Part shown: one piece after another, positions 55,481-60,715 of the stretch
Layout of the letters: each line of letters begins with the position of its first letter
Position numbering within the stretch: position 1 is the stretch's first letter
From: an uncultured delta proteobacterium
GTDB lineage: Bacteria; Desulfobacterota; Desulfobacteria; Desulfobacterales; B30-G6
Direction: 5' to 3'
DNA: 64,000 nt
Assembly: GCA_963823335.1 (NCBI GenBank)
Contig: CAWGLD010000004.1
Span: 480,001 to 544,000, forward strand
Translations under genes and position numbers: made by a program
The notes under the pieces: generated by a model
Told to the model about the DNA's origin: nothing
The model's database searches: none
Seen by the model: only the letters and a program-made list of their open reading frames with translations

Positions 55481-57260
55481 GAGACTGTCGAAAAAGGCAT
55501 TTCGGCGAACCGGTTCATCGCTCGACATTCTCGATTTCAATAGATCCATCTTTTTTACTTCAAGATGCTATCATATTTTACAGATTCAGCCTACTTATTT
55601 GGTCTGTACAGCCTATGCATGCCCGTAATTAGCCACTTTCTCTATATTGTGTACCATGCAGTACAGCAACCACTGAATATTTACCTTTATCTTTCCCCTT
55701 AAGTTAAGCCTGTCCATTCGTTTTTGGATGTGGATGTTTCCAAATACAGGTTCAACGATGGCAATTCTTCGCGGATAGATTTTACGACCTTTTTCAGATT
55801 CAATCTTCTTGATCATTTCATGGGATATATTCTTGCCAGACGCATCCACATAGAATGTAAAATGTCGTTGTTTAGCATCTTCATACCTAAGACACTTAGC
55901 CCTGAGTCGACAGGACCTACAATCTATCTCCCGAGAAATATATCTTTTTAAAAGTTTGCCCCTATGTAAACCAGGTTTCCCATTTCTCTTAAGCCGCTTA
56001 CCATTTGGGCAAACATAGTGGTCCTGCTTGCGGTCATGCTTAAAATCTGCAAATGTAAACTTTTTAGAGTTTGACTGATTGTTTATCCGACTTGAGAACC
56101 TCTCATCTCGATTACGGAATTTGTTGTCTGGAATATAGGCATCTAATTTTTCATCACTGCATTTATTAATATTCGTTACGCTGTGATAACTTGCATCGGC
56201 TGTTAATATCTTATCTTCGAAATAGTCCTCTGGCTTGCCGATGCTTTGAAGTTATTCTTTGGCACCATCAATCACAGGAGGCAGATTTTCATGATCAAGC
56301 CCTTTCCCTATTGCCTCGCCATTAACAATTACCTGGTGCTTGGAATCGACTAACGCCTGACAGTTATATCCCTGAACAGTTCCGTGTGAGGTATGCATTT
56401 TAACAGAATCGTTGTCAGTTACATTGCTGTGAAGTTCTTTTCCATAGGCACCAATTATTTTGTCGTTTTCTGAAAACCATTGCTCAATCTTTTCAGCCTG
56501 CCGCTTAAGTCTCTCAATTTGTTTGTCACGATTTGCAGCCATCTGAGTCTTGGCCCTATCGTCTGATTGGTCTTTTTCAAGATGATCTCGAACGAACGAC
56601 TTAATCTTATGTTCAAGCTTTTCTTTCTTTTTCTTCAAATCATCTATTTTCCCACTACATTCTTGGGATGCATTGGACGATAGCTTGCAGCCATCAATGG
56701 CAAAGAAGGTTCCGCCTAAAAGATTCTCTTGCTCGCATACTAAAAGAATATCGCTGAACAGAGGTTGAATTTGATCTTCCATAGAAGAAACGAATGAAGC
56801 AATGGTGCTGTGATCAGGACGTTGGTTGCATGACATCGCCATAAAAGTCACATTCTCACAACATGCTCGTTCGATTTGGCGTGATGATATCAACCCACGT
56901 GAATAAGCAAGCAAGACAACTTTCAGTAGTATCTTAGGATTATAGGCACTGCGGCCGGTATCGTCGTTTTGATACCTCGTATCAAATACGGACATATCCA
57001 TCCGCCGTTCCACAAGGGTGTGGATGGCGAACTCTAACGTCCCTGGCATCAATTGTTTTTGGAGGGAAACAGGTATCAATAAACTTTGAGAGTAGTCGTA
57101 GTGCTTATACTTTGCCATGCCTAATTCCTGTATGTTTGGCCATTGTCATTTGCTCATTTACCTAAACAATGACTAGCATAACGGTAGGATATGTCAACGG
57201 TTTATAGAGATAATTATACATCTTTTAAGGTTAGATAGGAGGATCTTTTTCGACAGTCTC
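55481..57260 (-). mobile_element. IS1182-family insertion sequence
   Basis: 16-bp perfect TIR GAGACTGTCGAAAAAG / CTTTTTCGACAGTCTC; GGA on both flanks. Confidence 0.92.
55613..57118 (-). pseudogene. IS1182 transposase with one in-frame TAA (56252-56254)
   Basis: GRSAYNPKILLK..SSRQIERAC, PDHSTI, IDGCK; same frame continues ADASY, YVCPNG, VEPVFG to 55613. Confidence 0.9.
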
Positions 57261-57351: not shown

Positions 57352-57699
57352 TCAAGCAATCTTAACATTCTCTGCCCCTTTAAACAGTTGAATAATTTCC
57401 CTTACATAGGCGCATTCACATTCGGCCCGACACTGTCTTAATTCCTTCTTGTTCAAACAGTATTCTGGGCACTCATCTGTCCCAGTTTTTGGCTCCGAAA
57501 AAATTGGTCCGTCATAAAGATCGACAAAAAGATCGGCGGATAAGGTGATAGTATTCTTACAACTGTGATTGAAGTATAATAGGCCAGCTTCCAGATTTTT
57601 AAAATTCACTTGATAACCGACAATCATTATATCCTGGTCGGCAATAAAATCTCGGCGGGTTGACCATTTATGCCCGCAAACTTTACACTGTTTAAACAT
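57352..57699 (-). CDS. Cys-rich hypothetical protein (putative metal-binding)
   Basis: MFKQCKVC...HSC...CPEYC...CRAECEC. Confidence 0.75.
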   Translation of the reverse strand: MFKQCKVCGHKWSTRRDFIADQDIMIVGYQVNFKNLEAGLLYFNHSCKNTITLSADLFVDLYDGPIFSEPKTGTDECPEYCLNKKELRQCRAECECAYVREIIQLFKGAENVKIA

Positions 57700-57761
57700 G
57701 AAGGTGCTTTCGTAATTTTTAATATGTCGTCTGAAAACCAAGTATCAGGACGGTGTTGATG

Positions 57762-57930
57762 AATGGAGACAAGTCCAACTATCCGATAATTGAAAAAAAT
57801 GCAAGATACCATCTGGCTATGCCCACGGTACCACGGAGGGGTCTATAGATGCAAGATTTGGCCTGTTGTGATAATTTTCGCACACCGGTAAAATTTTAGG
57901 GGTCTGATATCTACCATTTTGTTGGAGGTA
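57762..57930 (-). repeat. 169-bp inter-module repeat, copy A
   Basis: Colinear without indels with 60808-60976 and 61773-61941; A vs C 133/169 identical by hand. Confidence 0.92.
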
Positions 57931-57957
57931 CCGGCAATCAAAGAAACCAGTCCAATA

Positions 57958-58488
57958 TTACTTGTTCAATAGTGACCACATTGAATTTGTCAGTTCGTGC
58001 TTCAGATGATCACCAGTACGGTAGTGATCATTTTTTGCCCAATCATCGCTTACTTGATGCATCCAAGTAATGGGTTTCGGAGGGACATCTTCCCATTCAA
58101 TGGTTGGTGGATAAAAGAGATAGATATCCCAAGCGACATGACCATCCCAACCAACACTTGTCGCAATCTCCTTTCCCGATATTTGTTTAGGATCATAGAA
58201 ATGTTGAATACGATCATCATTTAACAACTTGATGGTCGGTAATGCAGCTTCTAATGAATCTTCAGGCAGCATATTAATCCAAACAATGGACCCGTTGATA
58301 TCGGTCTTAGGAAAACTCTCAAACACATTCTTATGCACCGCCCGGGCACCTTGGTCACGTCACAATGGGCAAGTGGGGGATAGAAGGGCAAGGAATCGTA
58401 TTTTTCCCTTTCCTCTGTTGAAATGGTCTTTTAGATGGTCCAGCGAGCCCAACAGCTTGATATTGTCCTTTGTTTCGCCGGTTTTCAT
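57958..58488 (-). CDS. Thioredoxin-fold selenoprotein (CxxU), 176 aa
   Basis: RBS GGAG + ATG 58488; RFLALLSPT-C-P-L-U (TGA 58360-58362), in frame with ORF 57958-58338; SECIS-like hairpin follows. Confidence 0.85.
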
Positions 58489-58520
58489 TTTCGAATCTCC
58501 TAACTAAGAGTCTGAAGTCG

Positions 58521-59018
58521 CTAAGCCATTTTGAAAGATTTTTTCCCGGTCAATTTATCCACCACCTGGCGGACATCAGCCAAACATCAGCGGCCTTTGG
58601 GATTCTTATTGGCACAATCGCATCCATCGGCTTTTTTCTCGGCTGCAATTTCAGCCATTATCGTAGATCGGCCATTTTTCTGATAATCCTGTTCAATGTC
58701 CCTCCTGGTATGCTTAAAACAGTAGCAGACCAAATCATCCAAGTTAAATTCACTGGTTTTTAACGTATTTGATTTAGCGGTATCCCGCACCAGCTGGCCG
58801 TTTAATGATGCAACGTATCCTGCCTTTATCAGGGCATGCTTCATATCTTCGAATGAAAGCAATTCCGGATCATAGGAAACAACAGCTTTTTTCTCGGCAT
58901 TACTGGCGGTAGCCTCCTTTACCCCCTCAAGCCCTTCCAGGGCCTTTACCACTTTGGGCTCTCACCCCATTCAGGTCATACCTTGGATAGACAGTTCGAT
59001 CTTCAGATCTTTAGACAT
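58521..59018 (-). CDS. CopZ/HMA + BFD-like [2Fe-2S] fusion with three selenocysteines, 165 aa
   Basis: ELSIQGMT-U-MG-U-EPKVVKALEGLEGV (HMA GMTCxxC); LVCYCF...GCDCANKNPKGR-U-CLADVRQVV; TGA at 58971-73, 58962-64, 58587-89. Confidence 0.85.
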
Positions 59019-59196
59019 ACATTTCCCACCTTTGTTTATTCGTCACAACAAATTTCCAGATCAATAGTTTCACTGCGTTCAAGATTGTCAAACGATTCCA
59101 GTGCTTTCATTGCCCATTGTTCCCCGGGGCAACCAGATTCGGTGATTGCCACATTGAGAAATTCTACAAGCTCTTTAGCAAGAACCTGTTTTCTTA

Positions 59197-59496
59197 CTAT
59201 TTTGAATGCATAATTTCTCTGACTGCATTCGAAAGTGAATCCATGTCCGGTATGTTGTCAAAGGCTATGCGTTCATTGATAATAATCGATGGAACTGAAG
59301 GCATTCGCTTACAGATTGTACCGAGTTCAGCGTGCCTCATCACACCCTCTTTAGAACTGACATCGACCACCGTCCACTGGAGAACGCCCTTCTCAAATTC
59401 GGGGGCAATTTCTTCCAGTATTGCAAGCGCCAAATCGCACAACATGCACCCTTTCTTTTTTGCAACAATTTCTACAATTACGTTTTGCAAATCCAT
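59197..59496 (-). CDS. Thioredoxin/glutaredoxin-like protein (CxxC)
   Basis: GCMLCD, SVPSIIIN cis-Pro motif. Confidence 0.8.
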   Translation of the reverse strand: MDLQNVIVEIVAKKKGCMLCDLALAILEEIAPEFEKGVLQWTVVDVSSKEGVMRHAELGTICKRMPSVPSIIINERIAFDNIPDMDSLSNAVREIMHSK

Positions 59497-59923
59497 GTAC
59501 CAGAATCTCTATTACACATTTTTCAATTTTAAAATTAATCCTTTTTTCCAATGGCCCTATGTAAGGTCGAGTGGTGATAAATGGAGAGTAGTCACGGTTT
59601 AACAGACCCGTAAAAACCTGTGATTACATCACATCCCGCTCTAATAATTGCCACGATCGCCATTACAGATATCATTTTTCTTACAAATTTGCAAAAAAGG
59701 GAAAATCGTCGAAATGATCCTCCCGCATGATAACATAGAAATACAACGTGAGTGACGATTGCGTGTAGTGGTGATGTGTTATGGTATCTGCAATTATCGT
59801 AAAATACCGATGAGTTGGAGATAGTACGAGTTTACGACCTTCAAAGCGATCTGTGATATAAAAAGTGGCAAAACTAAGGTAGCTCTGCCACTTTAATATA
59901 TCCAACCTGTACAACTTAGATTA

Positions 59924-60715
59924 TTAGTTCAGCGCTTCAATAAAGCAGCCACCGCCACCGCCACCGCCACCGCCACCACCATCATCGTTACTAATAGTGG
60001 CGTTAAAAGTACCAGTGTCACCGGTTACAGAATACCACCAGCCTGACATGCTCACACCATTTATTTTACCCCAAAACGCAAATTCCTCGTCATTCGGACC
60101 ATCTCCATCGTCATGAAAATAGCCGTCAGGATGCAGCCAACCCTGTTTAAAGGCATAATCAGCACCATCAATTGTCACCGATCCGGTGATGTCGCCCAAG
60201 ATTTCTCCATTAGATTTAATTGAGATGACTATTTTACCAGAGTTATCTCCAATATAGGTGCCCTTATAAGTTCCTACATATTGGTCAATAAAGTCGTCTG
60301 AAGTGATTTTACTGCCAATTAAATTTCCTGAATCAGCTGAATCTGTATCGGACCATGTTCCCGTAACCGACCCATTAGATGAATCGACTTCAATGGCGAA
60401 TTGGTAGCCCCAAAGATACGAGGGTCCGACAGAATAATTTCCGACCGTGCCTGCTTCACCTTCATAGTTAATCGAACTTGATGGGCCGATATCACCCTGG
60501 CTGATATCTGTCGAATAAAACCAAAATTTTGCCCCTAAATTTATATCGAGTGCAAGATACCAAACACCATTATCATCGCCCGAATATGTGCCTTTATATA
60601 GGCCGTTATAATCTTCTTGGGCGCACCATGAATTTGGAGCCAATAAAAACAATAGAAGGGATAGGTATAGTAGGATGTGAGCTATTCTGCTTGGACTGTT
60701 GGTCACCATCAGCAT
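59924..60715 (-). CDS. Secreted protein with poly-Gly-CFI C-terminal tail
   Basis: Signal peptide; repeated YxGxYKGTYxGD; ends DDGGGGGGGGGGGCFIEALN. Confidence 0.8.
   Translation of the reverse strand: MLMVTNSPSRIAHILLYLSLLLFLLAPNSWCAQEDYNGLYKGTYSGDDNGVWYLALDINLGAKFWFYSTDISQGDIGPSSSINYEGEAGTVGNYSVGPSYLWGYQFAIEVDSSNGSVTGTWSDTDSADSGNLIGSKITSDDFIDQYVGTYKGTYIGDNSGKIVISIKSNGEILGDITGSVTIDGADYAFKQGWLHPDGYFHDDGDGPNDEEFAFWGKINGVSMSGWWYSVTGDTGTFNATISNDDGGGGGGGGGGGCFIEALN

Follow-up and report, generated by a model that had tools for sequence, protein, structure and literature searches.

The question raised by this locus is whether an open reading frame that carries UGA at three conserved cysteine positions encodes a selenoprotein and, if so, what role such a protein may have. 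The gene lies within a 64,000-nucleotide stretch of DNA from an uncultured delta proteobacterium (hereafter, the window). It occupies the minus strand, a detail absent from an earlier sequence-only reading, with its ATG at 59018-59016 and a TAG stop at 58523-58521. When TGA is translated as selenocysteine (Sec, U), the frame yields a 165-residue protein in which U occupies positions 16, 19, and 144. The resulting motifs, GMT-U-M-G-U and NPKGR-U-C, place Sec at both cysteines of the HMA motif and at the first cysteine of NPxGxCC, and the translation bears out the earlier assignment of these three codons. The features of the locus are collected in Table 1.

Table 1. Features of the three-Sec fusion gene and its immediate neighbours, in window coordinates.
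Feature	Position	Strand	Basis
Three-Sec HMA/CopZ-NT-like fusion CDS	58521..59018	minus	165 aa + TAG; translation, domains, 41 distinct full-length copies
Shine-Dalgarno-like AGGUGGG (putative)	59025..59031	minus	7-13 nt 5' of the ATG; suggested by eye
UGA codon 16, first Sec of GMT-U-x-x-U	58971..58973	minus	TGA in 41/41 distinct copies
UGA codon 19, second Sec of U-x-x-U	58962..58964	minus	TGA in 38/41 distinct copies, Cys (TGC or TGT) in 3/41
UGA codon 144, Sec of NPxGx-U-C	58587..58589	minus	TGA in 41/41 distinct copies; 2hu9 alignment
HMA domain, residues 9-68	58815..58994	minus	Pfam PF00403, 57.4 bits (cut-off 24.8)
CopZ-NT-like / BFD-like Cys-rich domain, residues 96-153	58560..58733	minus	C98, C100, C133, C135, U144, C145; NF047645, Fer2_BFD
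SECIS-like hairpin 1	58929..58945	minus	AGGCCCU-GGA-AGGGCUU; MFE fold; 5-bp conserved core 58931-58943, loop GGA
SECIS-like hairpin 2	58557..58574	minus	GUCCGCC-AGGU-GGUGGAU; 7 bp, loop AGGU 19 nt after UGA144
Downstream partner, 176-aa thioredoxin-fold selenoprotein, SPT-C-P-L-U	57958..58488	minus	Sec codon 43 at 58360-58362
Upstream neighbour, 99-aa thioredoxin-like protein, CxxC	59197..59496	minus	NF047660, 58.6 bits, below cut-off of 105; Cys form of HUIPC-type family

The TGA columns were counted over 41 distinct full-length copies of the fusion, the window copy included. The argument that three stops at conserved Cys positions speak against decay holds up across these copies, in which codons 16, 19, and 144 are TGA in 41/41, 38/41, and 41/41, respectively. 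The three TGAs recur in homologues at 46-64% protein identity, and five more loci that fall beyond the motif filter agree with the Sec pattern as far as their contigs reach. Homologue pairs of Sec and Cys forms are also found. Codon 19 is Cys in four loci (L079, L081, L085, and L084), codon 144 corresponds to the leading Cys of CC in PDB 2hu9 and protein P0103, and comparison with the Pfam HMA family shows Cys where the fusion carries Sec at codons 16 and 19.

The Sec machinery is present in the source genome. SelB (373 bits), SelA (610 bits), and SelD (372 bits) all score over their curated cut-offs, a tRNA-Sec is located at C6:16589-16686, and the SelD gene has a TGA of its own. Elsewhere, TGA is used as a stop codon; it is the first stop after the conserved C-terminus in 14/34 homologues, and inner TGA codons are absent from SelA, SelB, and 23 MerA-like matches of the source genome. 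These observations bear on an alternative in which the TGAs are sequencing errors, products of decay, or a sense codon (Trp or Gly) in another genetic code. Its support comes from the databases, where 66 matches of the fusion were found and 23 aligned; nine of the 23 have W at all three Sec sites, as a caller set to code 4 or 25 would print. The W residues in these nine entries arise because gene callers read TGA as Trp, and relatives have Cys rather than Trp at each of the three sites. Moreover, TGA stands at the same codons in 38-41 of 41 distinct copies drawn from many assemblies, and a 155-nt contig from an independent run (X4, record 23) spans 58823-58977 with codons 16 and 19 unchanged. 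The contigs from the sequencing runs cover the gene piecewise, and those over codon 144 are short pieces only, 3-5 letters off and probably from relatives. None of the runs listed as containing the stretch is an RNA run. The alternative of errors, decay, or recoding is extremely improbable and, as far as comparison goes, refuted. The TGAs are evidently real, free of sequencing error, given their recurrence in the 41 distinct copies, and the fusion gene is almost certainly a true selenoprotein gene.

A further alternative holds that only a partial product is made, ending at UGA16 or UGA19 or, from a later start, at UGA144 (the 121-codon table-11 frame 58952..58587), and such a product would lack either the metal site or the C-terminal helix. 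Most of the other 14 of the 23 aligned database matches consist only of the piece between codons 19 and 144, in most database entries the gene caller's prediction is precisely this 121-residue piece, and three UGAs in one message should be read through inefficiently. However, in-frame conserved residues precede codon 19 and follow codon 144 in all 41 copies, with the conserved flanks comprising the HMA β1 strand and the CLADVRQVV helix. The 121-residue piece also lacks the first strand of the HMA fold, and both SECIS-like hairpins are conserved. A partial product as the sole outcome is accordingly judged very unlikely.

In SECIS elements, the apical loop contains a conserved G, according to a figure legend in PMC1976440, and a stem-loop with a loop G (GGA or AGGU) is found downstream of each UGA of the fusion. 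Both hairpins are located where the sequence-only reading had placed them, and RNAalifold, run unaided on 41 sequences, recovers the same two. The loop of hairpin 1 lies 32 nt after UGA16 and 23 nt after UGA19. Pairing of its core holds in 99.4% of 165 cells, and the core displays compensatory change, with C-G replaced by U-A in 8/33 distinct rows; codon usage is frozen at L27 (CTG in 40/41) and G29 (GGG in 29/30). The six inner pairs of hairpin 2 persist in 39-41 of the 41 rows. Covariation gives no signal in this hairpin (each observed measure is reached in 414 to 489 of 500 shuffles) because the sequence barely varies, and support is instead provided by frozen synonymous sites, namely V149 (GTC in 38/39), R150 (CGC in 34/34), Q151 (CAG in 34/34), V152 (GTG in 38/40), and V153 (GTG in 41/41). 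Since the three TGAs recur in such divergent homologues and RNAalifold recovers both hairpins, the pattern is beyond chance. No SECIS family emerged from an Rfam scan of 57500-60000, in which the matches were all at chance level and far below their cut-offs. A further small hairpin around UGA19 (columns 6-9 with 15-18) was rejected, as only 70.5% of its cells are paired and covariation is absent.

The spacing rule for bacterial SECIS elements is 16-37 nt. UGA16 and UGA19 would most likely both be decoded via the single hairpin 18-27 nt downstream, while UGA144 would be decoded via its own. The earlier idea that one hairpin serves UGA16 and UGA19 is reasonable, because UxxC variants keep the hairpin and its spacing, with codon 16 as the sole UGA left for it to serve.

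The AF2 model of the fusion finds its best structural match in 6a71_A, with Z 13.0 and an rmsd of 1.2 over 72 residues. The model displays the β-α-β-β-α-β secondary structure of an HMA domain with the metal motif at loop 1/helix 1, and U replaces both motif Cys. The best NCBIfam match for residues 6-72 is NF041115, which likewise describes an HMA fold in which Sec takes the place of the two metal-binding Cys and is listed with UxxU as a 'putative mercuric reductase' in Table 1 of PMC13188914. NF041115 is a single domain of ~74 residues with two Sec, whereas the 165-residue fusion adds another domain and with it a third Sec. With 61.5 bits against a cut-off of 95 (48.5 in a six-frame search) and its two-domain length, the fusion is not a member of this equivalog. 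The same fold is found in NmerA and MerP (2kt3, Z 10.2; 1afi, Z 9.9). MerP has a signal peptide, whereas the fusion, as its sequence reads, has none and starts directly at the first β strand; its score with the MerP model (TIGR02052) is 37.8 bits, well under the cut-off of 92.55. NmerA and MerP are HMA modules of the mercury resistance system; the fusion is not joined to MerA.

The UxxU motif had been described as best known from SelL. SelL harbors two Sec three positions apart in a thioredoxin fold. It differs from the fusion in its fold, its domain of life, and the position of its SECIS, and the resemblance is one of motif only. SelL is not the nearest precedent, because UxxU in an HMA fold is already catalogued, both in NF041115 and in Table 1 of PMC13188914. 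The main text of Zhang & Gladyshev 2007 makes no mention of the UxxU protein.

The C-terminal part had been described as a BFD-like Fe-S domain. A second, Cys-rich domain is indeed present, but the Fe-S half of the CopZ N-terminal domain is the better name for it, because NF047645 (CopZ_Nterm_CC) matches with E 3.9e-15 whereas Fer2_BFD (PF04324) reaches only 21.5 bits on residues 96-153 (E 3e-4), below the Pfam cut-off of 26. The NF047645 match (56.3 bits, cut-off 100) extends over profile positions 70-137 of 138 only, and with this score and the Zn subdomain missing, the fusion falls outside that family. The Cys pattern CxC…C…NPxGxCC is present and aligns with 2hu9 residues 74-120, with U as the first C of the CC pair, and the Cys columns of the domain are invariant in 27 sequences. 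The best PDB sequence match of the fusion is 2hu9_A (E 0.024, single sequence). A value of E 8.9e-9 for 2hu9 from profile A6 was discarded as overstating the link, because P0103, a 455-residue protein with a complete CopZ-NT and two HMA domains, was part of the profile. The Foldseek and VIA match lists for the fusion model are filled by the HMA domain.

The C-terminal domain shares the GxUC motif with cd10141 form 1. The proteins of that form are single-domain, whereas in the fusion the domain sits behind the UxxU HMA domain. Stand-alone GxUC proteins of 70-90 residues with one TGA, 44-75% identical to fusion residues ~90-160, occur in 18/40 related genomes, and the source genome encodes such a paralogue.

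Both domain types are found in one chain in Archaeoglobus fulgidus CopZ, of which the VCYC…C…NPxGRCC segment aligns with fusion residues 97-145. There are, however, several differences between the two proteins. CopZ consists of an N-terminal Zn/[2Fe-2S] domain (PDB 2hu9) and a C-terminal HMA domain, while the fusion has the reverse order, with HMA first, and retains only the Fe-S half of CopZ-NT, without the Zn subdomain. The fusion has an extra invariant Cys (C133), three of its ligand positions are Sec, and its source is a bacterium of the Desulfobacterota rather than an archaeon. A sentence in PMC7830388 cites CopZ as a copper chaperone, with reported reduction of Cu(II) to Cu(I). On the basis of homology and gene context, the fusion may be called a putative metallochaperone and its second domain a putative Fe-S domain.

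The genes that most often accompany the fusion encode thioredoxin-fold proteins. A CxxU/UxxU partner lies directly 3' of it in 23/54 other fusion loci. The CxxU partner has no Pfam or NCBIfam match; its AF2 model (pLDDT 88) has a TlpA/ResA/Sco-like fold, and Cys homologues of it exist (P0313 and P0302). The CxxC thioredoxin-like gene directly adjoins the fusion in 11 other loci and is found farther off in L076 and L077. Comparison demonstrates Sec coding, the identity of the domains, and a conserved two- to three-gene cassette.

Genes for metal handling form the second recurring group. By count it is the smaller one: of the 54 other fusion loci, at least three have MerA next to the fusion and at least two have a P1B-ATPase near it, figures that are minima because many contigs are under 3 kb. 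In L078, the order is MerR, MerA, MerT, MerP-like, an unknown gene, the fusion, and the CxxU protein, with a MerA of 528 bits (TIGR02053) that has no N-terminal HMA. In L098, a P1B-ATPase, MerR, and MerA are followed by the fusion and the CxxU protein. MerA adjoins the fusion in L084 too, and L095 has a P1B-ATPase nearby. In all three loci with an adjacent MerA (L078, L084, and L098), that enzyme is without an N-terminal HMA domain of its own. In L041, the two halves of the fusion are separate adjacent genes, flanked by a membrane protein with CC in its first hydrophobic stretch (called MerT-like by eye alone) and by a CopZ-like gene with a P1B-ATPase. The fusion of L077 is set among arsenite-methyltransferase-type selenoprotein genes. 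No metal gene stands beside the cassette within the window, where its neighbours comprise hypothetical genes and a fragment of an IS1182 transposase, and no MerA of the source genome scores above the cut-off (best 385 bits versus 454).

From these data, we infer a role in the handling of soft metals, which metal and what the partners do included. The explanation that joins most of the evidence, and the one considered probable, is that of a cytoplasmic three-Sec selenoprotein for soft-metal capture or transfer with support from a redox domain. In CopZ, MerP, and NmerA, two thiolates bind Cu(I) or Hg(II); the N-terminal HMA domain would offer a putative diselenolate, U-x-x-U, at that site. This site may capture or hand on a soft metal ion, with Hg(II) or Cu(I) being the most likely. 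The C-terminal domain would correspond to the Fe-S half of the N-terminal domain of Archaeoglobus-type CopZ, with six conserved Cys/Sec and Sec as the first Cys of the CC pair. Together with the thioredoxin-fold neighbours (CxxC upstream and CxxU downstream), it is proposed to keep the easily oxidised Se-Se or Se-S sites reduced or to aid metal release. Against this explanation stand the small number of loci with metal genes, the lack of such genes beside the cassette in the window, the lack of a MerA above the cut-off in the source genome, and the scores of the fusion, which fall below the cut-offs of all NCBIfam metal-chaperone models.

The same neighbours lend themselves to a different reading, in which the three-Sec protein is a redox relay and not a metal carrier. 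The U-x-x-U motif would cycle between diselenide and diselenol, and electrons would pass among the Fe-S-type domain and the two thioredoxin-fold neighbours toward a substrate unrelated to metal trafficking. Consistent with this, the most constant neighbours are the thioredoxin-fold redox proteins (CxxU in 23/54 loci, CxxC in 11) rather than metal genes, and the fusion of L035 is located among rhodanese, DsbD, and flavin-reductase genes. Prokaryotic selenoproteins are mostly held to be redox proteins, and UxxU is listed for redox families such as Prx-like proteins (PMC13188914, the latter in its Table 1). However, metal-binding HMA domains share both the fold and the place of the motif, the non-redox genes that recur nearby belong to mer and cop, and the sole studied protein with such a domain pair is a copper chaperone, as cited in PMC7830388. 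A purely redox function is therefore considered unlikely.

The metal-handling reading can be extended to a more ambitious one, in which the cassette is an undescribed selenium-based soft-metal module; all of its parts holding together is doubtful. The diselenolate HMA site would outcompete cellular thiols for Hg(II) or Cu(I), and the HMA domain would stand in for the missing NmerA where an HMA-less MerA is encoded alongside. The Sec-bearing Fe-S domain and the CxxU/UxxU selenoprotein would reduce or unload the metal site, and one SECIS hairpin would recode two UGAs nine nucleotides apart. If true, the spacing tolerance of SelB would be wider than the E. coli model allows.

Selenoprotein families had already been catalogued for each half of the fusion on its own, namely NF041115 (UxxU) and cd10141 form 1 (GxUC), and the fusion unites these two families in one chain. 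The three-Sec fusion itself is absent from a 2026 inventory of 119 selenoprotein families, and no NCBIfam model reaches its cut-off on it. An all-Cys full-length fusion is not among the best 150 matches listed from a search of 1.84 billion representatives. These 150 are mostly multi-HMA proteins, and the 12 inspected include eight tandem-HMA proteins, two stand-alone forms of the C-terminal domain, and one long CC-form fusion. Annotation misses both the fusion and its partner because nearly all database entries are truncated or have Trp at the Sec sites.

Three-Sec proteins are rare in bacteria, with one in the 2026 inventory of 119 families. Counting the downstream partner, Sec codons number four in the cassette of the window and five in cassettes with a UxxU partner. 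The cassette constitutes a compact natural test of how far a bacterial SECIS can reach from its UGA (one hairpin at 18 and 27 nt) and of what is gained by a selenolate over a thiolate at a metal-binding site. Its association with mer and cop clusters in Desulfobacterota of sediments is relevant to how mercury and copper are handled in anoxic sediments.

The fusion gene encodes a 165-residue protein in which translation of TGA as selenocysteine (Sec, U) places U at positions 16, 19, and 144. U16 and U19 stand where the GMTCxxC motif has its two metal-binding cysteines, and U144 stands where the NPxGxCC motif has its first. An AGGUGGG sequence lies 7–13 nt 5′ of the start. The coordinates, codons, and motifs assigned to this gene by the sequence-only reading are all correct, and its interpretation, a triple-Sec metallochaperone joining a UxxU HMA domain to a BFD-like domain, is upheld in its genetic and structural parts.

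Coordinates of the fusion gene, its neighbors, and related loci (window positions unless a genome, G000, or a homologous locus, L, is named)
Feature	Location	Strand	Remarks
Fusion gene	ATG at 59018, TAG at 58523-58521	minus	translated with TGA as Sec
Hairpin 1	58929-58945		after UGA16/UGA19
Hairpin 2	58557-58574		after UGA144
Downstream partner	58488..57958	minus	176 codons, one TGA in SPT-C-P-L-U; 32 nt 3′ of fusion gene
Thioredoxin-like CxxC protein	59197-59496	minus	upstream neighbor, 99 residues; related to HUIPC-motif selenoprotein family, 58.6 bits vs cut-off 105
Open frame ending CCDE	59039-59152	minus	38 codons, between thioredoxin-like gene and fusion gene
Cys-rich hypothetical protein	57355-57699	minus	115 residues, several CxxC-like pairs; no family match
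IS1182-family transposase fragments	55613-55849 and 56255-57118	minus	148 bits, below cut-off 270; just downstream of cassette
SelD	G000:C5:144246-145172	minus	locus L010; one in-frame TGA, selenoprotein form
Stand-alone GxUC-domain paralogue	G000:C1:1761472-1761669	minus	locus L014, same genome; one in-frame TGA
MerA genes	L078:1306-2706, L098:2227-3627		467 residues, ~527 bits (above cut-off); without N-terminal HMA (NmerA)
175-residue gene	L078:3419-3943		no family match; also in L081, L084, L104, L051; mer-type contexts
Split cluster	L041:613-5141		UxxU HMA (106 aa, signal peptide), stand-alone GxUC domain (81 aa), CopZ-like gene, P1B-ATPase
Frame-shifted copy	L038:4418-4462		genome-bin copy; one extra base just past UGA144

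Residues 9–68 match the Pfam HMA domain (57.4 bits vs a cut-off of 24.8), while residues 96–153 give a sub-threshold match to the BFD-like [2Fe-2S] domain (21.5 bits vs 26). The protein falls below the cut-off of every NCBIfam model. The top matches are NF041115, the UxxU metal-binding (seleno)protein, at residues 6–72 (61.5 bits, cut-off 95), and NF047645, CopZ_Nterm_CC putative iron–sulfur cluster-binding metallochaperone, at residues 79–149 (E 3.9e-15, 56.3 bits, cut-off 100), the latter spanning only profile positions 70–137 of 138. An AlphaFold model built from 27 sequences (mean pLDDT 75.8) comprises a β-α-β-β-α-β domain (residues 5–77), a disordered linker (residues 76–89), and a mainly helical domain (residues 96–157). 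The first domain resembles solved HMA structures of ATP7B (6a71_A, Z 13.0), Hg-NmerA (2kt3, Z 10.2), and MerP (1afi, Z 9.9); HMA domains took up the whole of these structural hit lists. The nearest solved sequence relative of the second is the N-terminal domain of Archaeoglobus fulgidus CopZ (2hu9, E 0.024); a profile comparison gives E 8.9e-9, a value overstated by the inclusion in the profile of a long relative with a whole CopZ N-terminal domain. The alignment to 2hu9 matches VCYC...C...NPxGRCC, with U144 facing the first cysteine of the CC pair. Six Cys/Sec residues of the second domain are invariant or nearly so (C98, C100, C133, C135, U144, and C145), two more than one [2Fe-2S] cluster requires. 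A Cys form of the U144 motif (GSCC) occurs in the database protein P0103, and one stand-alone relative of the C-terminal domain has Arg at the Sec site.

The selenocysteine machinery is complete for the four components sought: the genome (4.37 Mb, 11 contigs) contains SelA (610 bits), SelB (373 bits), SelD (372 bits), and a tRNA-Sec whose anticodon is TCA. Among 5.8 billion proteins searched, 66 relatives of the fusion protein were found, and 23 of these were aligned. Nine are full-length forms with Trp at all three Sec sites, attributable to a gene caller reading TGA as Trp. Most of the other 14 are pieces of ~121 residues running from beyond codon 19 to residue 143, as a gene caller would produce where both flanking codons are TGA. 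That only truncated products are made from the gene is very unlikely. Scans for relatives yielded 29 loci in genomes and 80 in metagenomes; 49 of the loci, together with the window, passed a motif filter for the full fusion gene, and 41 of these copies are distinct. Across the 26 homologues aligned, protein identity to the window copy is 46–64%. Codons 16 and 144 are TGA in all 41, and codon 19 is TGA in 38, with TGC or TGT in the remaining three (L079, L081, and L085). Five further loci outside the filter are concordant: L084 is of the U-x-x-C type, all three Sec are present in L087 and L103, and the sequences of L090 and L111 stop short of codon 144. The anticipated Cys/Sec homologue pairs exist, with Cys at codon 19 in L079, L081, L085, and L084. 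In one copy, L038, the frame shift could be an assembly indel or mark a broken gene.

Sequencing error or another genetic code is an extremely unlikely source of the TGAs. Codons 16 and 19 are unchanged in a contig from an independent run covering 58823–58977. Reads support codon 144 weakly, and a search of sequencing runs found no RNA run containing the stretch. Of 34 homologues, 14 use TGA as the first stop beyond the conserved C-terminus (doubled in L080), and no inner TGA occurs in SelA, SelB, or the 23 MerA-like matches of this genome; judged from these genes, TGA still serves as a stop, which argues against another code. The fusion gene very probably encodes a selenoprotein.

Both SECIS-like hairpins proposed from the sequence appear when the 70 nt past each window UGA are folded to minimum energy, and RNAalifold on 41 aligned sequences predicts exactly these two and no other helix. 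Their loops, GGA in hairpin 1 and AGGU in hairpin 2, lie 32, 23, and 19 nt from UGA16, UGA19, and UGA144, respectively, in agreement with the bacterial SECIS spacing rule. The 5-bp core of hairpin 1 is paired in 99.4% of 165 cells, and pairing drops from 86% to 71% or less when the 3′ partner is slid. One C–G pair becomes U–A in 8 of 33 distinct rows (11 of all 41) through a synonymous Ala change (GCC to GCU) matched by a Gly-to-Glu change (GGG to GAG). Hairpin 2 gives no covariation signal against shuffles because it hardly varies. Its codons scarcely differ at synonymous sites (Val GTC 38/39, Arg CGC 34/34, Gln CAG 34/34, Val GTG 38/40, and Val GTG 41/41), while four or five synonyms appear for each of Pro, Gly, Arg, Leu, and Ala in the flanking codons. 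The four U-x-x-C variants have codon 16 as their sole UGA near hairpin 1, so the longer spacing must also be workable for this hairpin; these variants support the suggestion that one element may serve both UGA16 and UGA19. A small second hairpin around UGA19 was rejected (70.5% paired).

The downstream partner directly follows the fusion gene in 23 of 54 other fusion loci; many of those without it lie on contigs that break off early. It carries C-P-L-U in 19 loci and U-P-G-U in four; Cys forms (C-T-E-C and C-K-E-C) exist, and a conserved hairpin lies 3′ of its UGA. It matches no Pfam or NCBIfam model and lacks a hydrophobic N-terminus. Its predicted structure (pLDDT 88) has a thioredoxin fold, with TlpA, ResA, CcmG, DsbE, and Sco proteins as the closest matches (best E 3e-4, TM ~0.5), and the gene may represent an uncatalogued selenoprotein family. 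Its database entries are truncated or carry W at the Sec site. The CxxC thioredoxin-like gene directly adjoins the fusion gene in 11 other loci. The 38-codon frame has one tblastn match (53% identity), adjoining a stand-alone GxUC gene in L126, and the Cys-rich gene did not turn up next to the fusion at other loci. Comparison of loci shows that the fusion is a two-domain protein with three Sec, belonging to a small conserved cassette that also includes one or two thioredoxin-fold proteins.

The fusion is much rarer than the stand-alone GxUC domain. It occurs in one of 10 genomes searched in the genus (the window's own) and in three of 401 across the phylum (G000, G207, and G350). The stand-alone domain with one in-frame TGA is found in 18 of 40 related genomes, and 42 of 72 matches in the phylum-wide sample, among the matches listed, are the C-terminal domain only with an in-frame TGA. 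All six genome records with the fused gene, as well as L041, are labeled delta proteobacterium, Desulfobacterales, Desulfobacteraceae, or Candidatus Desulfacyla. The patchy distribution (three of 401 genomes) and the IS1182 fragments hint at horizontal transfer. Each half belongs to a catalogued selenoprotein family, NF041115 for UxxU and cd10141 form 1 for GxUC, hence the finding is not categorically new. Table 1 of a 2026 review (PMC13188914) lists no such fusion among 119 families and a single three-Sec family, arsenite methyltransferase/AhpD; a 2022 review lists the same two separate families. No description of the fusion was found in the literature searched, which included the main text of the 2007 Olavius paper, where the UxxU protein is absent. 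New here are the three-Sec fusion, the single hairpin behind two UGAs, and a conserved CxxU/UxxU partner without a Pfam or NCBIfam match.

The A. fulgidus CopZ is the only studied protein sharing this domain pair; a citing sentence in PMC7830388 describes it as reducing Cu(II) and handing Cu(I) on to CopA. Among the window neighbors no metal gene lies near the cassette, this genome has no MerA above the cut-off, and L035 is surrounded by rhodanese, DsbD, and flavin reductase genes. A pure redox relay, the main rival function, is nevertheless rather doubtful, and metal handling is modestly favored. L078 has the order MerR, MerA (528 bits, without an N-terminal HMA domain), MerT, a MerP-like gene, the 175-residue gene, fusion, and CxxU protein; L098 has P1B-ATPase, MerR, MerA, fusion, and CxxU protein. 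Both MerAs align only to positions 98–558 of the long MerA model. MerA and MerT occur in L084 as well, L095 has a P1B-ATPase, and L077 is surrounded by arsenite-methyltransferase-type and DUF2284 selenoprotein genes. The 175-residue gene immediately precedes either the fusion or a stand-alone GxUC gene. L041 carries the two halves as distinct neighboring genes between a CC-motif membrane protein (MerT-like by eye only) and the CopZ-like and P1B-ATPase genes.

In metal handling, the HMA domain would bind a soft metal ion between two selenolates, and the CopZ-NT-like domain and neighboring CxxU/CxxC proteins would maintain the selenols in reduced form or assist release of the metal. The role of NmerA underlies a further possibility: beside a MerA without its own HMA domain, the fusion protein could act as a free-standing NmerA.
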